A DNA stretch of 59,653 bases, filler included. It is 6 parts of 6 records of this genome, joined end to end, with 100 filler letters (N's around TTAATTAATTAA, not from the genome) between each part and the next. Parts side by side here need not be neighbours in the genome. Positions count along the whole stretch, not along the records: positions 1 to 9,793 come from SRR31156797_6972; 5 more parts are not named here. One strand, 5' to 3'. A program made the translations under genes and the position numbers. The notes below the pieces were generated by a model. It saw only the letters and a program-made list of their open reading frames with translations. It ran no database searches and was not told the origin of the DNA. Shown in pieces: positions 1 through 9,793 of this stretch. The stretch's first letter is position 1. Each line of letters opens with the position of its first letter.

Positions 1-643
1 CTAAATAACCATATTGAGCTATACCAACTCTTGCAAAATCAAAGGTATAATTCTTAAATCTAAATAAACCTGAAGAATTAGCACAATGGAACTTAGGAAT
101 AGTTAAAAAAAGTTTTTCACATAAGTTGATTACCATGTGTTTAGCTTGTATAAAAACTGATCTTTGCCAAAAGAATTCACATGATAATTCATCTGCGCTT
201 CTAAAGTGTGTGAAAACTCCAGTTAAATTAAGTTTTTTCTCACAAATCCCATAAATAGCCTCTTCTATCTGTTTTAGAGTTATTCCATTTCTATGCATAC
301 CTGTGTCAATTTTAAGATGAACATTCGTGTTTTCGGGTAGTTTTTCAATATCTTCCAAACAATTCACAGCGATGTGAAAAGTATGTGAACAAGTGTGAAT
401 ATCACAATCAGCCAGAATTAAGATTTGCTCAAAAAATGTCTCAATTTTTTCTGCTTCTTCTAGTGATTTTACTACTGCTTTTGTTACTCCATACTCTTTT
501 GCAAGTGATGCGATTTCTAAAAGTCCGTGACCATAGGCATTATCTTTTAATACCACTGCAATTTTATCTTTTGAGCCAAGATGTTGTTCTATTTTTTGAA
601 GATTGTGAAAATAATGTGACTTGTTTAAAACGATTTTTGCCAA
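1..643 (-). CDS. alr: Alanine racemase, 5' portion, running off the window edge
   Basis: Not in the ORF track. Manual translation from TTG at 643 gives [15 protein letters not shown]...[13 protein letters not shown] (PLP-lysine motif) and later [12 protein letters not shown] and FTHFRSAD. It lies directly downstream of uvrC. Confidence 0.93.
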
Positions 644-647
644 GAGT

Positions 648-2480
648 TTAACCTTCGAGAGATTTAAAATAATTGATTATAAGCATAGCATCTTTTTCGT
701 TTAGAACATCTTTTAATTCTTCAAGCTTTGCATTTTTGATATTATCAAATGTCCCAAAATATAAAAGAAGTTTTTTAACCTTAGCTTCACCAATTCCTTT
801 GATTTGAAGAAGAGATATTTGAGTGTCTTCTTTTCTTTTTTGTTTCTTATGAAATGTTATCGCAAATCTATGTGCTTCATCTCTTAGTCTTTGTATAAAT
901 TGTAGTCGTTTGTCACTAGTAACTAAATCTAGCCTTTCAATGGCACCATTTTTTTCAAAATATATAATATCTTTTGCACTACCTTTTGCTCTGTGAGCTT
1001 TAAAATCTAGTTTTTCTTTTGCAATAGCAATAATCTCTAAGTTTACTCCAACAGAGTTTCTAATATCAATTGCAAGTTTTAACAAAGTCTCTCCACCATC
1101 TATAACCCACATATCAGGTGCAGGATTTTTTTCAAAGCTATCAACTCTTCTCATTAGAGTTTCTCTCATTTGAGCATATTCATCTTTGGCTTCTAGGTTA
1201 TAGTGTCTAAAATCACTTTTTACAAACTTCTCTTCCCATGTAACCATAGCTCCAACTGTTGCTTGTCCCATCATATGTGAGTTGTCATAACATTCAAATC
1301 TAGTTGGTTCTTTTGCTAATCCAAATAATAACTGTAATTCTTTGTATATAGAAGTTGTATTATTTACATTTGACAACCTTAGTAGTTCATTACAGTTATT
1401 TAGTGCTACATTTATTATCTCAGTTTTTTTACCACGCTTAGGATAGTTTAGAGGAATTTTTTTGTTAAATTTACTTTTTACAAACTCTTCTATTTCTTCT
1501 TTTTCTTCAAGTTCATCTGCAATTAGTATTTCATCTGGAAGTAGGGGGATTTCATTGTCATAATAGTTTATTATAGCTCTTTCATAAGCTTCTTGTAAAT
1601 CTATAGTTATATCTTCTCTATTTGGTTTTATATAATCGTGGTTACTAGAAGCTAGTTTCCCATCTCTAAAGAACATTCTAACTAATACAGCTTTTTGTCC
1701 ATCATCTTTTATTGCAAATAGGTCAATGTTTTCATTTGTAGCTAAATCCATTCCTGTTTGGATTTGAGATTTTTCGATTGTTTTTATTCTATCTCTTAGT
1801 TTCATTGCCTCTTCAAACTTCAAGTTCATACTTAACTCTTCCATTTTTGAAGACAGTTTAGAAATAAGCTTATTTTTGTTGTAAATATAGTTTAATGCAT
1901 CATCAACAAGTTTTGAGTATTCTTCTTTTGTAATCTTCCCTTCACAAGGAGCAAGGCATTTTTTTATTTGATAGAAAAGACAGGCTTCTTTACCTTTTAT
2001 GCATGATTTTTTTTGAACTAAAGGAATAATCTCATAAATAGAGTCTAACATATCTCTAGCTCCTGTAGAGTAGGGACCAAAGTATTTGATGTTTTTTTCT
2101 TTTAAAACTCTTCTTGTTATTTCAAGTCTTGGAAAATCTTCGTTCATATTTATATAAATATATGGATAAGTTTTGTCATCTCTTAATAAAATATTGTATT
2201 TTGGTTTTAATTGTTTGATTAGTGAATTTTCTAAAATAAGTGCATCGTGCTCATTTGGCACTACAATCCACTCTAAAGATTTAACTTCAGTAATCATTTT
2301 ATATATACGAGGACTTAATTTATCAGCTGGAAGAAGTTTTGGTGTAAATTTAAAATAGGATTTTACCCTGTTTTTAAGTACTTTTGCTTTACCAATATAT
2401 AAAAGTTTTCCTTTTTCATCAAAGTATTGGTAAACCCCAGCATCATTGGGTAGTTGTTTTAGTTTATCTTCTAAATTCAT
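648..2480 (-). CDS. uvrC: Excinuclease ABC subunit C
   Basis: GIY-YIG N-terminus (GVYQYFD...[17 protein letters not shown]), UVR domain, RNase H-like domain (ECYDNSH, DGG), RDEAHRFA motif and C-terminal HhH (IKGIG). Confidence 0.98.
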
Positions 2481-2554
2481 TTGTGAATAATATCAAATAA
2501 ACTCTTGAATATCAATTTGTTATAATAGGAAAAAAACAATATAAATGAGAGTAA

Positions 2555-3241
2555 ATGCCTGGTCGACTAGCTATTTTTGATGATACAAGTTTTAGAAAAG
2601 ACTGTAACAATCTAATTAAAAATCCAATGATTAAAACAATTGAAAAAAACTATAATATTGCTCCAACTTTGCCAATTGCTACACTACTTAATAACGGAAA
2701 CTATCTTTATGCTCATTTTGGTTATTTGCCCTCGTGGGCAAAAGATAGAACTTCTATGAATATAAATGCAAGAAGTGAATCAATCTATGAGAAGCAAACT
2801 TTTAGGGACTCTTTTAAAACTAGAAGATGTATTATTCCTTTAAATGGTTTTTATGAGTGGAAAGTTGAAGATAAAGATAAAACACCTTATTTTGTAAAAG
2901 ATGTATCAAATGATTATCTTGCTGTTGCTGGTATTTGGGACGAATGGTTTGATGAAAATCTAAATATGAAGATTGTAACAGTTGCATTAATCACTTGTGA
3001 TGCTAGTGAAAAACTTGCAAAAATACATCATCGAATGCCTATTGTATTAGAGAAAAAAGATTTTGATTTATGGCTAAACTCAAATAGTTTAAAAGATGTT
3101 GTTTCTTTATTCAAACCTTATGAAAGTGAAAAGCTAAATATTTATGAAGTTACAAATGAAGTGAATAAAGTTTTATATAACAACCCCTCTTGTATAGAAG
3201 AGGTTAAGAGTATACAAAATGGGCAGTTGTCTTTGTTTTAG
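2555..3241 (+). CDS. SOS response-associated peptidase (SRAP/YedK/HMCES family) with an N-terminal Pro in place of Cys
   Basis: Family motifs YNIAPT, INARSE, RRCIIP..GFYEW and IHHRMP. N-terminus is MPGR (ATG CCT GGT CGA). C-terminus is GQLSLF. Confidence 0.92.
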   Translation: MPGRLAIFDDTSFRKDCNNLIKNPMIKTIEKNYNIAPTLPIATLLNNGNYLYAHFGYLPSWAKDRTSMNINARSESIYEKQTFRDSFKTRRCIIPLNGFYEWKVEDKDKTPYFVKDVSNDYLAVAGIWDEWFDENLNMKIVTVALITCDASEKLAKIHHRMPIVLEKKDFDLWLNSNSLKDVVSLFKPYESEKLNIYEVTNEVNKVLYNNPSCIEEVKSIQNGQLSLF

Positions 3242-4185
3242 CTTTCTAGAGGTGTATTTTTTATAAGAAATTGAACTCCATCTTTTATATTTTTTGCACT
3301 AAGTTTTGTATTATTTTTTTGTGCAATTTGATAACTCATATAAAGACCAATTCCTGAGCCTTCATCTTTTTTAGTACTGATATGAGCCTTGAAAATATCA
3401 TTTATGATATTTTCTTCTATTCCACCTGCATTATCATTTATTTCAATTATATTTTCATTTTTATTTTTATAGGTTTTAATTACTATTTTTTTATCTTTGA
3501 TATTATTTGATAGAAATGCATCTTTTGAGTTATTTATAATATTTAAAAGAATATGTTTAAACTCATTTTCAATTGCTATAATTTCAAAGTCATCTATTAC
3601 TTCAAGTTCAATTGTTATAAGATGTTTAATAAACTCATCTTTTACTAAAAGTAAAACTTTTTCAATCATTTGTTTTATTTTGAAACTTTCAATATCTTTT
3701 GTTTGTTTAAAAAAAGTTCTAAATTCATTTAGAGTGTTATTCATATGTTCAATTATTGTGTAACTTTTTTGCTGTAAATCTAAGATATATTTTTTGTCAA
3801 CTTCACCATTCTCAAAGTCAAAGTCCATCATACTAAGTCTCATTTTTAAAAGACTTAAAGGTTGAGCCCATTGGTGTGCAATTGCATCAATCATTTCTCC
3901 CATTGCTGCAAATTTAGATTGTTCTAAAAGAAGTCTTTCATTCTCTTCTCTTTTTTTTATCTCTTCTTCAACCTTTAGTTCTAGGTTATTTTTGTATTCG
4001 TCTAGCTCTTCATTTGCTTCAAGAAGTCTAAGTTGCATCTTGTCACTTTGTTTGATTATCTTGTCTAGTCTTTCACTTTTTCTTTTATAATCATCTAATA
4101 AATCAAATAATCCATCTTTGAAATGGTCATAGTCTTTTTTTAAAAATTTACCTACATATTGAGAGTTTAATTTTGAGTTTTTCAT
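3238..4185 (-). CDS. Cytoplasmic histidine kinase with an N-terminal SiaD-like coiled coil
   Basis: H-box (MGEMIDAIAHQWAQPL), N-box (NIINNSKDA), DNAGGI and GSGIGLY. No transmembrane segment. Its start overlaps the stop of the upstream phosphatase gene. Confidence 0.9.
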   Translation of the reverse strand: MKNSKLNSQYVGKFLKKDYDHFKDGLFDLLDDYKRKSERLDKIIKQSDKMQLRLLEANEELDEYKNNLELKVEEEIKKREENERLLLEQSKFAAMGEMIDAIAHQWAQPLSLLKMRLSMMDFDFENGEVDKKYILDLQQKSYTIIEHMNNTLNEFRTFFKQTKDIESFKIKQMIEKVLLLVKDEFIKHLITIELEVIDDFEIIAIENEFKHILLNIINNSKDAFLSNNIKDKKIVIKTYKNKNENIIEINDNAGGIEENIINDIFKAHISTKKDEGSGIGLYMSYQIAQKNNTKLSAKNIKDGVQFLIKNTPLES

Positions 4186-7100
4186 ATTTTAAATCCTACG
4201 ATAGTCATATCATCATTTCTATCATTTTCACCTTGATAATCCATCATTTCATAAAGCAATATCTCTTGCTGGTCTGGAAATGGAAGATTATAGTTTTCTT
4301 CAATTAGTTTTACAAATCTTTTTTTACCAAAAGGAAAACCTTTTTTACCACCATTTTGGTCTAGATATCCATCAGTTGTAAGATAAAATTGCATATTCTC
4401 TTCAACTTCAATTATGTGCTCTTTAAAGACATAGTCTTTATTTGACTTTTTGTAACCTATTGAATGTCTATCGCCTTTTATTATTTTTACTTTGCCATCT
4501 TTTTCATAAAATAAAGCAGTTTCAGAACCTGAAAATTTAATTATATTATCTTTTTTATTATAATAAAGTACTCCACCATCAAAACCTGCATTTGAAATAG
4601 ATGTTTCATCTTCTTGTTTTAGTAAGTGTTTCATACTTTTATTAAAAATTGACAAAATTTTAGAAGGGCTTACAATCTCTTTTGTATTTTTTATATTAGA
4701 AACTATTTGTCTTTCTATAGCTTTTACAAGCATAGTTACAAAAGCTCCTGGAACACCATGTCCTGTACAATCAATTACCATTAAAATACATTCATTTTCA
4801 TCTCTTAGTTCTTCAAATAAATATATATCTCCACCAACAATATCTTTGGGATGCCAGATTGTAAGATAATCTTTAAAATATTTTCTAAACAGATTATTCT
4901 CTGGAATAAGTGCATGTTGGATTAAAGAAGCATATTCAATACTATCTTGTGTTTGTTTATGAATAATCTCTATCTCTTTTTTTGCTTGTTCTAAATCTAT
5001 AGTTCTCTCTTCAACTTTTTTCTCAAGGTTTTTACTTAAATCTTCTACAATCTTTTTGTTTGTTATATCTTGACTTATTGATTTAAAACCAATAAGATTT
5101 GAATTTTTATCATAGTCAGGTTCAATTTTTGAATATAACCAATAAGATATTCCATCTTTGCTTTTGTTTTTTAGTTCACCTTCCCAGCTTTTTTCTTCAC
5201 TTAAGTTTTTCCATAACTCTTTAAAAACTTCACTAGACGTATCCGGGTGCCTAATCATTTTTACTGGTTTTCCTATTAACTCATCTTTTTTATAGCCAGA
5301 TATTTTACAAAAAGCACTACTTACTTGTGTGAAGTTTCCATATTGGTCTGTTTGGTTAAATATTACATTTCTATCTAAAGATTTTAGGGTATTTTCTAGT
5401 TTCTCTTTTTGTTCATTTATATCTTCTGTTTTTTTATCAACAAGTGTTCTTAATTTTTTATTCCAGTAAATAATAAGAGCTGTAATAAAAAGAATAATGA
5501 ATATTATAGGTAAAACATAAGATAGAATTTTTTTAAGTGAAAAACCTTTGTTTTCTTCTATTTTAACTTTTACCCAACCATTATATATTTTCTCTCTATC
5601 TTTTTCACTAATAGTGTCAAAAACCTTATTTATAATTGAAAGAAGCTCTGGCATTTTAGGACTTATTAAAAAGTGGTGAATAAACTCTTTTTCTGTATTT
5701 CCTGCTAATTTGAGGTTTGCTTTTCCTATTCTAGAAATATTATATAAAGCAGGAGCTAAATGTCCAACAAAGATATCTGCATCTCCATTTGAAACTTTTA
5801 AAAGAGCATCGAAAATATTATTTGTCTCTAAAATTTTGCTATTTGGATATAAATCTTTTACATAGTTATAACTAGTGTAGTGTTTTGGTATTGCAAAAAT
5901 ATTGTCTTTTACTGATTCAAGAGACCTTACATATTCTATATTATTGTTAGTAACCATAACCATTGGATATGAAGCATACTTTTTAGAAACTAAACCTAAG
6001 GCTTTTTCCTCTTTTGAATTACCAATTCCAGGGACTAAGTCAATCTCACCTTTTCTAAACTTTTCTAATACTTCAGCCCAACTATTTGCCGGGACATATT
6101 TAAATTCTATACCTGTGGCATCTGAAACTAAGTTTAAATAATCTCCCATAATACCTGATATTGAATTGTTTTCTATTATTGAAAGGGGTTTCCAGTTTAT
6201 TTCACTGTATTTAATAACAATTTTTTTGTTTAGCCAAGCATATTCTTTATTACTAAAATTTATTTTTCTTTTTTCATTAAACCATTTATATTTTAGTTTA
6301 TCAACCTCTTGTATTGAAAGATTATTCATAGCTTTTTTTAAGATAGAAGCTAAAATAGGTGCATCTTTCTTAACTGCAATATAAAGGTTTTCCATCTCAG
6401 GGTCATCTGCTTTCACATCAGATGTGTATTTCAAACTCTTGATAACATTTTCTGCCATTATATGGTTTAAGATTGCAGTTTTCCCTAGTGTTGCATCAAC
6501 TTCTCCGTAAACAACTGCTTTTATACTATCGAGAGTTGTATTGTAAGTGATTATTTCTATTTTTGGATATTTCTCTTTTAAATACTTATCATAAATAAAA
6601 CCTTTTATAACAGAAACTTTTTTCCCAAATAGCGAGTTGATATTTGTAATATCATTTCTATCTTTTTTTGTTAAAATAGAAGTTATATTTCTAGCATAAA
6701 TTCCTACATAATTTAATTTTTCATCTCTTTCTTTTGTCTTTGCAATGTTCATCATTACATCAATTTCACCATTGTAGGCTTTTTTCAAAGATTCATTCCA
6801 AGAGTTTGTGACAAACTCAACATTTAATCCTACAAGTGAAGCTAAGTCTTTTATATAATCTATTGAAAATCCTAAAGGTGTATCATTTTTATTGAAGTTA
6901 AAAGGTGCCCAATCATACTCGTTGTGAACTTTTATTGTAGGGTTGTTTTGTATCCATTTTTTTTCTTCTTCAGTAAAATCTATTTTTTTTATATTTTTTC
7001 TAGAGCAAACTTCCATACTTCCAATAAACTCACCTCTAAATAATATCTCTGTAGTTTGGAGTATGCAATCAATTCTTAGTTGTTTTTCATTGAAAGATTC

Positions 7101-7352
7101 ATTTACAATTTCATTGTTTCTATTTTTGTAAAGAAATAAAAATCTTTCTTTTGTAAGAGCATCATATATAGTAATATATTTAATCTCTTCATTTTTATTC
7201 ATATAATCTTTTAATATTGATTGAATTTCTTTTTCATTTAGCTCATAAAAAGAGTTAGCAATAATACTTGAAATCTGTTTATCCGAATCTTTTGAAGTGG
7301 CAAATACATTTGTTAAGACAAAAAAAACTAAAAAGAGTATTTTATAAAACAT
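4182..7352 (-). CDS. SiaA-like sensor phosphatase: signal peptide, two periplasmic SBP family 3 domains, TM helix, PAS, PP2C/SpoIIE domain
   Basis: Two SBP repeats (DWAPFNF...GFSIDY; NWKPLS...GIMGDY), TM LSYVLPIIFIILFITALIIYW, PAS (SGYKKDELIGKP..IRHPD), and PP2C motifs DIVGGDIY, DCTGHGVPGAF, TDGYLDQ and DDMT. Confidence 0.9.
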   Translation of the reverse strand: MFYKILFLVFFVLTNVFATSKDSDKQISSIIANSFYELNEKEIQSILKDYMNKNEEIKYITIYDALTKERFLFLYKNRNNEIVNESFNEKQLRIDCILQTTEILFRGEFIGSMEVCSRKNIKKIDFTEEEKKWIQNNPTIKVHNEYDWAPFNFNKNDTPLGFSIDYIKDLASLVGLNVEFVTNSWNESLKKAYNGEIDVMMNIAKTKERDEKLNYVGIYARNITSILTKKDRNDITNINSLFGKKVSVIKGFIYDKYLKEKYPKIEIITYNTTLDSIKAVVYGEVDATLGKTAILNHIMAENVIKSLKYTSDVKADDPEMENLYIAVKKDAPILASILKKAMNNLSIQEVDKLKYKWFNEKRKINFSNKEYAWLNKKIVIKYSEINWKPLSIIENNSISGIMGDYLNLVSDATGIEFKYVPANSWAEVLEKFRKGEIDLVPGIGNSKEEKALGLVSKKYASYPMVMVTNNNIEYVRSLESVKDNIFAIPKHYTSYNYVKDLYPNSKILETNNIFDALLKVSNGDADIFVGHLAPALYNISRIGKANLKLAGNTEKEFIHHFLISPKMPELLSIINKVFDTISEKDREKIYNGWVKVKIEENKGFSLKKILSYVLPIIFIILFITALIIYWNKKLRTLVDKKTEDINEQKEKLENTLKSLDRNVIFNQTDQYGNFTQVSSAFCKISGYKKDELIGKPVKMIRHPDTSSEVFKELWKNLSEEKSWEGELKNKSKDGISYWLYSKIEPDYDKNSNLIGFKSISQDITNKKIVEDLSKNLEKKVEERTIDLEQAKKEIEIIHKQTQDSIEYASLIQHALIPENNLFRKYFKDYLTIWHPKDIVGGDIYLFEELRDENECILMVIDCTGHGVPGAFVTMLVKAIERQIVSNIKNTKEIVSPSKILSIFNKSMKHLLKQEDETSISNAGFDGGVLYYNKKDNIIKFSGSETALFYEKDGKVKIIKGDRHSIGYKKSNKDYVFKEHIIEVEENMQFYLTTDGYLDQNGGKKGFPFGKKRFVKLIEENYNLPFPDQQEILLYEMMDYQGENDRNDDMTIVGFKI

Positions 7353-8061
7353 GATTAATCTTTATTTTTTCATTTATTTTTTTTATTATTTTGTTAGAAA
7401 CTTTTTTAGAACATATAAGATATCTTTTGTTTCCTTTTGGAATATTTTTTATAGGATAGAATTGTAAGTTGGAAATGTTTTTATTGTCTAGTAATACTTC
7501 TGCTTCTTCTTTTGTCATAAACATATAATCAGCTCTTTTTTTAGATATGAGTTCAAGCATTTTTTGATTATCGTTGTACACTACTTTTTTATTTACATTA
7601 TAAGAGTCTATTCTTTCATCCAGAAATTTCCCATAAGAGTATGAGGCTTTTGTAAGAAGACTATTTTTTTTATTGATTAGCAAATTATCAATGTTCATAT
7701 TAGGAAAAATACCTGCGGTATCTTTTCTTGCAATAATTCCCATTGGATTATCTTGATATACAAAATAGGTATATTTTGCATATTTTTCTCTTTCTTTGTT
7801 TTTAAACCAGCCCATTGCGCACATAGGAATTGTATTTGCTTTTATCTCATAAAGGTGTCGTTTAGATGGTCTTTCTTTTAGTTCATAGTCTATTTTAGCT
7901 TTTTTTAGTGCTTTTATTATAGGTGTTGCAACTAAACCTTCAACTGAGTTTTTTACTTTTTTTACATAAGGTATTCTCTCTTCATAAACAACAATTAAAC
8001 TATCGTTAGCATAAAGTAATGAAAAAAAGAAAATATAAATTATTATAAAAAATTTACACAC
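7342..8061 (-). CDS. Periplasmic substrate-binding protein (family 3-like)
   Basis: Signal peptide, ERIPY motif, and a typical SBP3 pattern (KRADY). Overlaps the start of the phosphatase gene. Confidence 0.75.
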   Translation of the reverse strand: MCKFFIIIYIFFFSLLYANDSLIVVYEERIPYVKKVKNSVEGLVATPIIKALKKAKIDYELKERPSKRHLYEIKANTIPMCAMGWFKNKEREKYAKYTYFVYQDNPMGIIARKDTAGIFPNMNIDNLLINKKNSLLTKASYSYGKFLDERIDSYNVNKKVVYNDNQKMLELISKKRADYMFMTKEEAEVLLDNKNISNLQFYPIKNIPKGNKRYLICSKKVSNKIIKKINEKIKINHVL

Positions 8062-8200
8062 TCTATAACCTTTTCGTATATTTATTATGATAACATATTA
8101 TATCAGAAAATAATTACTTAATTTCATTATTTATTATACAAAATAATAAATAGTTTGAATAATGTATAGTTATTTCTAACTAAAATGTTTAGGTTATATT

Positions 8201-8551
8201 ATGAAATTTTTAGTTGTAGATGATTCAAAGGTAGCTAGACAAAGAGTTGTCTCTTATTTAAATGATTTGAATTATGAGGTTGTAGGTGAAGCCGTAGATG
8301 GTATTGATGCAATTGAAAAGTTTAAGATGTTAACTCCTTGTGTAATTGCACTTGATTTGGAAATGCCTAATATGAAAGGTATCGAAGCTTCAAAAAAAAT
8401 TTTAGAAATTGATCCTACAACTAAAATAATTTTAATTACTTCAATTATAGATAAAAAAGAGATTATTAATGCCTTACGAATTGGTGTTAAAAAAGTTATT
8501 AGAAAACCTTTTACAAAAGAAAAGTTACAAGAGATAATAAATGAACTATAA
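8201..8551 (+). CDS. Single-domain response regulator (CheY-like receiver)
   Basis: VVDD, LDLEMP (phospho-Asp), ITS and KPF motifs; 116 aa. Confidence 0.93.
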   Translation: MKFLVVDDSKVARQRVVSYLNDLNYEVVGEAVDGIDAIEKFKMLTPCVIALDLEMPNMKGIEASKKILEIDPTTKIILITSIIDKKEIINALRIGVKKVIRKPFTKEKLQEIINEL

Positions 8552-8560
8552 AGGCAGAGT

Positions 8561-9118
8561 ATGAATATACAAGTTATTCAAGATATTGTTGAAGAAGATG
8601 GCATAGTTTTTTTAACTTATGGTGGGTTCTTATCTCAATCTTTAATTTCATCTATGATGGAAGCTTTAGAGAAAGAAGCTGAAGAAAGGGATTTGAGTCT
8701 TGGAGAATCAAGTAATATTTTTACTATATTTATAGAATTAACACAAAATATGATGAATTACTCAAAAAGTAAAAATTTAGGCTCTGATAAGATAAACCCA
8801 CAAGGCTTAATAGTTGTTACAAAAGATAAAGATGCTAACTATTTTATTCATAGCCAAAATGTTATTGGAATAGAAGACAGACAAAAAATAGAACCTAAAC
8901 TACAAACAATAGCAAAGCTCTCAAGAGATGAAGTAAAAAAACTTTATAGAGAATCAAGAAAAACGGGTCAAGATAAACATGGTAAAGGTGGAGGAATTGG
9001 GTTTTATGAAATTGCTAAAAGAAGTGATGAAATAAAATATACTTTTAAGGAAATAAACAAAGATAGGTTTTATTTTCACTTTATATCAAAAATAATAACT
9101 AAAAAGGAGAAAAAATAG
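8561..9118 (+). CDS. siaB: SiaB family protein kinase
   Basis: YGGFLSQ, FIELTQNMMNYS (N-box-like) and GGGIGFYEIAKRS (G-box-like). Directly upstream of a siaC homolog. Confidence 0.85.
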   Translation: MNIQVIQDIVEEDGIVFLTYGGFLSQSLISSMMEALEKEAEERDLSLGESSNIFTIFIELTQNMMNYSKSKNLGSDKINPQGLIVVTKDKDANYFIHSQNVIGIEDRQKIEPKLQTIAKLSRDEVKKLYRESRKTGQDKHGKGGGIGFYEIAKRSDEIKYTFKEINKDRFYFHFISKIITKKEKK

Positions 9119-9499
9119 ATGAATAATCTGGTGATTGAAGAGACTAAATATACACCATACATAAGATTTAGTCAAGAAGAGGGAGTTTTAGAAATAATTG
9201 GAAAATCTTATCCTGAAAACACTTTTGAATTTTATAAACCAATGATGGAATGGATTGAAGAGTATTTTGATGGAAATGAAAAAGAAAAAACTATAGTTAA
9301 TATGGAAATTATATATTTTAACTCAAGTAGTTCAAAACTATTTTTTGATTTTTTTGATTTATTAGAAGAAGCTCACAATAATAAAAAAATTGTTCAAATA
9401 AACTGGATATATGATGATGAAAATGAAAGTGCTTTAGAAGCAGGTGAAGATTTTAAAGAAGATTTTGAAGAACTTGAGTTTAATTTAAAAGCTAAATAA
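9119..9499 (+). CDS. siaC: SiaC family regulatory phosphoprotein (DUF1987)
   Basis: TKYTP, GKSYPENTFEFY, YFNSSSSK and WIYD..NE...EAGEDF motifs; 126 aa. Confidence 0.9.
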   Translation: MNNLVIEETKYTPYIRFSQEEGVLEIIGKSYPENTFEFYKPMMEWIEEYFDGNEKEKTIVNMEIIYFNSSSSKLFFDFFDLLEEAHNNKKIVQINWIYDDENESALEAGEDFKEDFEELEFNLKAK

Positions 9500-9517
9500 C
9501 TTCTCAAAGGACTTAAA

Positions 9518-9793
9518 ATGCAAGAGAATGAAAACAAACTTATCTCAGAACTTGAAACCCTTCAAGAGAAGTTTAAAAAAACTACAGATAAGTTGATAAA
9601 AGATATTACTCGTCATGATAAAATTATGGCACAAAGTGATAAGAGACAACAAAAAGAGTACGATGAACTTCAAATAAAACTTAAAGAGGTTGAGGCTTTA
9701 AGTAAAGAGATTGAAGAAACTCAAAGAGAAGTTGTTTTTACTATGGGAGCTATTGGGGAAAGTAGAAGTAAAGAGACAGGAAACCATGTAAAA
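9518..9793 (+). CDS. Coiled-coil plus HD-GYP phosphodiesterase, N-terminal fragment cut by the contig end
   Basis: EIEETQREVVFTMGAIGESRSKETGNHVK is the typical start of RpfG-type HD-GYP domains. Confidence 0.75.

Follow-up and report, generated by a model that had tools for sequence, protein, structure and literature searches.

The stretch of DNA described here (the window; 59,653 nucleotides, several contigs joined by N spacers) carries a SiaA/SiaB/SiaC gene cluster in its first contig, positions 1-9793, to which our finding is confined. The cluster is probably a branched partner switch in which the small phospho-switched protein SiaC docks on two outputs, a histidine kinase and an HD-GYP protein. 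In Pseudomonas, unphosphorylated SiaC binds SiaD, a GGDEF enzyme, and phosphorylation of SiaC blocks this binding (PMC8457831, partial text). We consider it very likely that SiaC binds the helical stalk of the kinase, and quite likely that it also binds that of the HD-GYP protein. A first-pass annotation, made from the sequence alone, had suggested docking on these two proteins; its Sia-type switch and SiaD motif have held, and the motif has turned out to be more general than the two outputs. We lean towards a wider proposal, that the motif of the SiaD stalk is a portable "SiaC-input" module that occurs in one to three copies and substitutes for a sensor domain on histidine, hybrid and CheA-like kinases, HD-GYP proteins, GGDEF proteins both active and degenerate, and PP2C phosphatases. 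On this proposal, one Ser/Thr phospho-switch would directly set a His-Asp phosphorelay and cyclic-dinucleotide turnover in parallel.

The genes for a periplasmic solute-binding protein (SBP), a SiaA-like phosphatase and the histidine kinase lie on the minus strand, consecutive reading frames overlapping by 11 and 4 bases. Divergent from them, on the plus strand, are those for a CheY-like receiver, SiaB and SiaC, followed by the first 92 codons of the HD-GYP gene, which is cut at 9793 (Table 1). These open reading frames (ORFs) agree with the gene map, coordinates and divergent operons described earlier, and the divergent arrangement is complete in the relatives L002 and L005 (labels beginning with L denote siaC loci, with G genomes and with P motif-bearing representative proteins). 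SiaC aligns with chain C of 6KKO (E 6.4e-22), which places its Ser69 at the position of Thr68, at the start of helix 2; a serine stands at this phosphosite in 80 of 80 related loci, and the score against the NF038265 equivalog is 119 bits, under the cut-off of 150. SiaB E59 aligns with the catalytic E61 of 6KKO chain A (E 8.5e-17). The SiaA-like phosphatase runs from a signal helix through two SBP_bac_3 domains, one transmembrane segment (609-627) and a PAS domain to SpoIIE. It matches the SiaA PP2C structure 6K4E at 187 bits, with the metal-binding aspartates and the SiaC-contacting GF loop aligned; against the full-length equivalog NF038263 it scores 266.9 bits, below the cut-off of 700, because its N-terminal sensor part differs and only the C-terminal 290 residues align. 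Residue roles in the Pseudomonas proteins follow PMC7647112 (partial text). With catalytic and phospho-acceptor positions kept, the alignments support a SiaABC-type partner switch, whose phosphorylation cycle would follow by homology. The SBP gene holds the same position in L001, L002, L003, L005 and L019, and its product is a probable input to the phosphatase, judging from this position and the overlap with the phosphatase start.

Neither output protein has a recognizable sensor. The kinase consists of an N-terminal helical stalk of about 95 residues, an H-box with His104 and a HATPase domain; its H, N, G1, F and G2 boxes were all found, and it has no transmembrane segment or sensor domain. 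Residues 2-99 are predicted to form a single helix (monomer model, pLDDT, the predicted local distance difference test, 91.5). NCBIfam kinase models cover only residues ~75-305, and NCBIfam gave no match to the N-terminus of either output protein. Among the N-termini of 21 kinases, no Pfam family covers the stalk, and there are only scattered sub-threshold coiled-coil matches. For the HD-GYP protein, Pfam finds no match in the 92-residue start; the gene is so named because these residues are 82-86% identical to the starts of HD-GYP proteins of 264-265 residues, the closest being those of L002, L003 and L005. The HD, HHE, GYP, ADxFDA and RxYK motifs are complete in 45 of 45 full-length motif-bearing relatives (in the window they would lie beyond 9793). 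As a single-sequence query of the PDB, the 92-residue start retrieved unrelated helical proteins only, SiaD not among them.

The link between the two proteins is a 13-residue N-terminal motif, found where it had first been reported (kinase residues 39-51, HD-GYP residues 32-44), with R-x2-K-I-x3-S-D-K-x-Q common to both and one site in each. The SiaD residues that contact SiaC are R74, K77, V78, R80, I81, S82, D83, R84, Y85, Q86, M88, R90 and D91, of which S82 and Q86 bind SiaC Thr68 (PMC8457831, as far as the accessible text goes), and the SiaD motif given in the first-pass annotation agrees both with this list and with the chain in 7E6G. Each window motif shares R74, K77, S82, D83 and Q86 with SiaD and has similar residues at V78 and R84; the equivalent of D91 is D in the HD-GYP protein and E in the kinase. 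SiaD has two tandem sites, an arrangement that is absent from both window proteins. Compared by themselves, the two N-termini reach a local alignment score equalled by 69 of 5000 plain and 170 of 5000 heptad-preserving shuffles (p 0.014-0.034). What makes this modest pairwise likeness convincing is a family profile, together with the association with siaC and the agreement with the residues of SiaD that contact SiaC.

The profile (A1; 37 positions, 39 rows from the window and related loci, none from Pseudomonas) and the alignment to the SiaD stalk had been proposed as a check. Run against 177,635 PDB sequences, A1 gave three matches at E<=10, one of which is SiaD (7E6G), and it aligns to both SiaC sites of that protein. 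Profiles that left out whole classes were then scored over 2,489 ORFs. One built from only 18 SiaD-like GGDEF stalks ranked the window kinase fourth, at 19.9 bits with the best background at 4.9, and by this comparison the kinase motif is securely SiaD-like. The HD-GYP motif is a divergent subtype with the common core. In motifs of its class, the S is kept in 46 of 47 and the D and Q each in 47 of 47; an Arg occupies position 8 in 39 of 47 and position 12 in 45 of 47, with 0 of 21 kinases having it at either. The window HD-GYP motif departs from this with a Gln at position 8.

A GTDB scan with SiaC, from which the best 80 of 97 relatives were taken (mostly Campylobacterota), gave 81 loci with the window contig included. 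Of these, 75 hold 98 motif proteins of at least 14 bits, and no ORF among the 2,489 scores between 8 and 14; 39 of the 98 segments had trained the profile. The 98 comprise 51 short and 13 long HD-GYP proteins, 21 kinases, 4 CheA-like kinases, 7 members of a 300-residue class, 1 GGDEF protein and 1 PP2C. Kinase and HD-GYP protein both carry the motif in 11 loci. The HD-GYP gene directly follows siaC in most loci and encodes the sole motif protein in 40 of 81. In the same loci, 9 of 30 other kinase-like proteins and 59 of 60 PP2C proteins lack the motif, and the motif-bearing kinases have intact N (20/21), G1 (21/21) and G2 (18/21) boxes. A search of 1.84 billion representatives with the motif profile returned 129 matches. 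Pfam divided the 78 longer ones into 31 kinase-type (4 hybrid, 2 with CheX), 11 GGDEF, 7 SpoIIE, 3 HD and 26 unmatched at 1e-7; a cluster look-up of 10 motif proteins returned no names. Judged from these sequences, a SiaABC switch with a portable, putative docking helix on at least five enzyme classes is real, conserved and widespread among siaC-carrying Campylobacterota.

Had the motif been common in genomes that lack siaC, it would say little about SiaC; in the samples searched it is confined to siaC-carrying genomes. Among 301 genomes from the phylum of G001, 15 have a SiaC above cut-off; 12 of these carry the motif, as do 0 of 286 siaC-negative genomes (Fisher 5e-19, or 1e-17 without G001; the genomes are related and not independent). 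In this sample, 21 of 23 motif matches share a contig with siaC and are no more than 6 kb away from it. Among the siaC-positive genomes without a motif call, in G224 the kinase directly after siaC bears a weak motif (14.8 bits), and G179 and G236 have a distant SiaC (31%) and no motif was seen. In the phylum of G005, a strong SiaC match was found in 5 of 201 genomes, 4 of which have the motif, each time beside siaC. In the class of G004, SiaC is present in 10 of 300 scored genomes and the motif was matched in 1 of 301, the training genome; siaC there is mostly followed by a GGDEF gene whose SiaD-like stalk scores less well (7 of 9 loci). A canonical siaD farther downstream could have been the only SiaC target. 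No siaD or GGDEF gene is present in contig 1 (to 9793), and no siaD follows the HD-GYP gene in L002, L003 and L005, the nearest complete relatives: the cluster ends there in L003 and L005, a second siaB-like gene follows in L002, and these genomes hold no further motif matches. A GGDEF protein near the cluster of L073 was rejected as a SiaD, since it carries no motif and falls outside every stalk alignment.

Prediction of the SiaC-kinase complex, another check proposed at the outset, was positive. Two kinase stalks (residues 1-100) with two SiaC chains scored 0.69, the best of three controls 0.00; of the calibration pairs, 51 of 78 solved and 2 of 108 mismatched ones reach the mark for this score, counts that carry over only roughly to a four-chain job. 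Runs share at least 90% of contacts, with partner pLDDT of at least 91. Of the 100 residues offered, the modelled interface takes kinase 38-55, with S47 facing SiaC S69, R39 facing D115 and K42 facing D111/D115; these pairs correspond to contacts in the SiaD crystal structure. Motif position 8 touches Ser69 and also the acidic E107/D111. Because 7E6G is a solved complex of the same kind, a pass indicates likeness and does not imply binding.

The spacing between motif and catalytic domain bears on how docking could be transmitted. From the motif arginine to the catalytic domain there are 47, 54, 68 or 75 residues in 49 of 49 HD-GYP proteins, and 51 or 65 in 21 of 22 kinases. Such whole-heptad steps are expected if a clamp acts through a continuous coiled coil. 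In the mechanism that we propose, periplasmic SBP domains would feed the SiaA-like phosphatase, which would remove the phosphate from SiaC Ser69 that SiaB adds, as homology suggests. A pair of unphosphorylated SiaC molecules would clamp the parallel two-helix stalk at R-x2-K-I-x3-S-D-x2-Q, with Ser69 between the two helices against the motif serine, so that phosphorylation would block the clamp as it does between SiaC and SiaD. The signal would then travel along the continuous coiled coil into the dimeric catalytic domains. One SiaC site would thus replace the sensor domain on the kinase and on the HD-GYP protein, with SiaC as their detachable sensor. By analogy with SiaD, binding activates rather than inhibits somewhat more probably than the reverse. 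The inverted Pseudomonas logic that the first-pass annotation raised as possible would require SiaC to activate the HD-GYP enzyme and the substrate of that enzyme to be cyclic di-GMP (c-di-GMP); c-di-GMP would then fall with phosphatase activity.

Several observations weigh against docking on both outputs. The match of A1 to SiaD in the PDB is weak (E 0.48) and comes third, below two unrelated helical proteins. The GGDEF-only profile misses the window HD-GYP motif (-1.0 bits, rank 162) and lifts 0 of 45 of its class above background. A kinase-only profile gives that motif 10.6 bits with background at 8.4, and again 0 of 45 HD-GYP relatives; an HD-GYP-only profile gives the window kinase 7.3 with background at 7.7, and 11 of 20 other kinases above background. 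The pass of the complex model may reflect prior exposure of the predictor to 7E6G, alignments were not used for it, and the job is unlike the calibration pairs. On the SiaC side, contacts have changed relative to Pseudomonas (T68S, I71S, R103S, L107A). At least two of the 12 motif-bearing genomes (G001, G070) supplied profile rows, the genomes are related, and whole gene clusters are passed on together. At genome level the gamma-type SiaD motif escapes the profile (found in 1 of 10 siaC-positive genomes), so that absences elsewhere are limited by sensitivity, and the siaC copies of L081 and L083-L087 have no detectable motif neighbor; in L081, L083, L084, L085 and L087 SiaC may have other targets.

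The wiring of the receiver is a separate matter. The first-pass annotation had the kinase feeding the CheY-like receiver, a claim that is weakly supported: a single-domain receiver lies within 4.5 kb of siaC in 12 of 25 motif-kinase loci and in 15 of 56 others (Fisher p 0.08; contig ends blur both counts), and five draft genomes keep close receiver relatives beside siaB, and no motif-bearing kinase was found genome-wide in them. The receiver tree does not support a dedicated kinase-receiver pair: the window receiver falls among receivers from clusters that have a motif kinase as well as from clusters that lack one. Phosphorylation of this receiver by the kinase is a tentative assignment, slightly less probable than even; the receiver may be a target of the kinase, a modulator of SiaA/SiaB, or both. 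The strongest rival reverses the wiring in part: an unlinked kinase would phosphorylate the receiver, which would act on SiaA/SiaB, and the motif proteins would partly be sinks that adjust the level of free SiaC instead of switched enzymes. Receivers that stay beside siaB in clusters without a motif kinase fit this idea, as do receiver-phosphatase fusions in the sia clusters of L082 and L088, the degenerate-GGDEF motif proteins and a 77-residue stalk-only ORF (L088). The catalytic motifs, intact in the kinases and in all full-length HD-GYP relatives, speak against sinks, and the heptad-phased linkers favor mechanical coupling. We consider partly reversed wiring unlikely, though worth keeping in mind; it is compatible with docking and would alter the wiring only.

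The remaining alternatives question the HD-GYP arm or the motif itself. SiaC might dock only on the kinase-type stalk, with the HD-GYP motif a diverged relic or a plain dimerization helix. The class-specific profiles, which tie the HD-GYP subtype poorly to SiaD-type stalks, are what this idea has in its favor; against it, the five core contact residues are kept, the gene adjoins siaC in most loci and is often the sole one with a motif, and the subtypes cross classes, the HD-GYP type heading some kinases (P0046, P0057, L050) and the kinase type some HD-GYP proteins (L020, L035, P0123). On balance this is improbable. Less probable still is that the two subtypes read opposite states of SiaC, kinase and GGDEF stalks the unphosphorylated form and the arginine-rich HD-GYP stalks phospho-SiaC, a toggle that would keep the Pseudomonas logic. 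The arginines at positions 8 and 12, which kinases lack, and the modelled contact of position 8 with Ser69 would suit it, yet the Ser, Asp and Gln that in SiaD bind the free hydroxyl and clash with phosphate (PMC8457831, partial text) are all kept, the window copy has no Arg at position 8, and that position also lies near E107/D111, ordinary partners for an Arg. Chance likeness of charged coiled coils, spread by shared cluster ancestry, could draw on the shuffle p values and the two helices that outscore SiaD in the PDB and is very improbable, being largely refuted by the clean score gap over all ORFs, the lack of the motif in some kinase-like and nearly all PP2C proteins of the same loci, its absence from siaC-negative genomes rich in coiled-coil kinases, and its fusion to at least five unrelated catalytic domains. 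Docking of SiaC on both the kinase and the HD-GYP protein is the reading that we retain as probable.

Beyond the two window outputs, the motif was seen in further settings. Two or three copies, 28 residues apart (32 in SiaD), occur in the kinases P0034, P0037, P0076, P0085, P0120 and P0124. A family of about 300 residues joins the motif, whose final Gln is often missing, to a degenerate GGDEF domain; its best PDB match is SiaD, its genes lie between or beside siaC and the HD-GYP gene, and its members are possibly catalytically dead SiaD paralogues or SiaC sinks. The stalk-only ORF, L088:8101-8334, is flanked by a motif-PAS-GGDEF gene and a motif kinase and could be a SiaC decoy or a broken gene. 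PP2C (SpoIIE) proteins with the motif (L012:1157-2572, L090:3369-4223; P0007, P0008, P0009, P0018, P0087, P0096, P0116) might let SiaC feed back on the phosphatase that acts on it, or pass the signal on to a second switch. The motif also heads CheA-like kinases, some with a C-terminal CheX (L037:2844-4898, L049:11752-13353, L050:6034-8109, L089:4066-6027); the receiver that comes after them belongs to a separate clade, and they are the best candidates for a SiaC-to-receiver phosphorelay. In P0079, a membrane hybrid kinase with SBP domains, the motif is internal (residues 546-578), just before HisKA, and the protein could integrate a periplasmic signal with SiaC. Four motif proteins of 417-480 residues (P0089, P0104, P0117, P0115) have no Pfam match at 1e-7.

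Table 1. Features of the sia cluster in the window, and related-locus coordinates of the 300-residue class
Feature	Position	Strand	Supporting match or remark
Sensorless soluble histidine kinase, 315 residues	3238..4185	-	Pfam HATPase_c 41 bits
Putative SiaC-docking motif of kinase	4033..4071	-	residues 39-51; modelled contact zone 38-55
SiaA-like membrane PP2C phosphatase, 1056 residues	4182..7352	-	Pfam: SBP_bac_3 x2, PAS, SpoIIE
SBP, periplasmic solute-binding protein	7342..8061	-	SBP_bac_3 27 bits
Divergent intergenic region, AT-rich, 139 bp	8062..8200	strandless	
Single-domain CheY-like receiver	8201..8551	+	Response_reg 88 bits; D7, D8, D52, T80, K102
SiaB-family Ser/Thr kinase	8561..9118	+	NF038262 130.7 bits, cut-off 85
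SiaC phospho-switch protein	9119..9499	+	PF09345 146 bits, cut-off 24.5
HD-GYP protein start, siaD position	9518..9793	+	first 92 residues, truncated by contig end
Putative SiaC-docking motif of HD-GYP protein	9611..9649	+	residues 32-44, divergent subtype
Degenerate-GGDEF class, 300 residues	L001:5202-6116, L004:7802-8704, L006:10387-11289, L016:2287-3216, L068:10391-11293, L074:4265-5200		

Contig 1 has a G+C content of about 26%, and a promoter scan of the divergent intergenic region found promoter-like sites at chance level (6 vs 3.7 +/- 2.2). Its end at 9793 is an assembly break: a contig from a second study spans the stretch with 28 differences and 0 gaps and ends 8 letters later, and one from another run extends about 430 letters past 9793. 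Positions 1-3241, a housekeeping flank, include uvrC and an SRAP gene; the stops of the latter and of the kinase gene share 4 bases. The flank begins with what we take, by eye from the sequence, to be an alanine-racemase-like gene. Positions 9894-59653 hold five more unrelated contigs after N spacers, in which the docking motif was found in no frame; the first of them presumably carries panC-, glycogen-synthase- and glmS-like genes, again named by eye.

If the proposal is true, SiaC would serve many enzyme classes as a detachable sensor of general use rather than activating SiaD specifically, and Ser/Thr partner switching would have a direct physical connection to two-component signaling. This would account for kinases and phosphodiesterases that look sensorless. 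The short motif could serve for annotating SiaC targets and as a small part for phospho-controlled enzymes.

Among known systems, the closest is SiaABCD of Pseudomonas aeruginosa (6K4E, 6KKO, 6K4F, 7E6G; PMC8457831 and PMC7647112, partial texts), with which the locus has in common the catalytic and phospho-acceptor positions of PP2C, SiaB and SiaC, and a SiaC-binding motif, here putative, on the N-terminal stalk of a sensorless enzyme encoded directly after siaC. It differs in having no siaD in contig 1 or close relatives, with HD-GYP and histidine kinase outputs instead; in one SiaC site per output where SiaD has two; in a Ser phosphosite and two divergent operons; and in a SiaA-like phosphatase that senses through SBP and PAS domains and does not reach the cut-off of the SiaA equivalog, accompanied by added SBP and receiver genes. 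HptB-HsbR-HsbA/HsbD and BgrUVW/BgrR likewise use a small phospho-switched protein that binds a c-di-GMP enzyme (same partial texts), and are set apart by description, having classical STAS proteins and cyclase targets. For Campylobacterota, clusters of PP2C, stas_STYK, STAS and a c-di-GMP enzyme were proposed by neighborhood prediction, with a periplasmic-sensor PP2C and a Ser/Thr kinase regulating the c-di-GMP turnover enzyme and SiaABCD cited as precedent (Mo et al., 2022; PMC9239204, partial text). Those clusters were found with SpoIIE and HATPase PF13581 queries, and the accessible text names neither a docking motif nor an HD-GYP protein or histidine kinase as a SiaC target; some of the clusters treated here may be listed in Table S6 and Fig. 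4 of that paper. In Nostoc, hcyA-D are also partner-switch genes clustered with a histidine kinase, which has its own GAF/PAS sensors and is itself proposed as the input; Sia and STAS do not occur in the accessible text (PMC9127174). Searches of the open-access literature turned up no account of a non-GGDEF SiaC target or a portable motif, nor do the available parts of PMC7647112, PMC12834913 and PMC9127174 contain such a target. That DUF1987 proteins, the family of SiaC, might modulate adjacent proteins was suggested in PMC8457831 (partial text), and a docking motif on the enzymes encoded beside siaC would make that suggestion testable.

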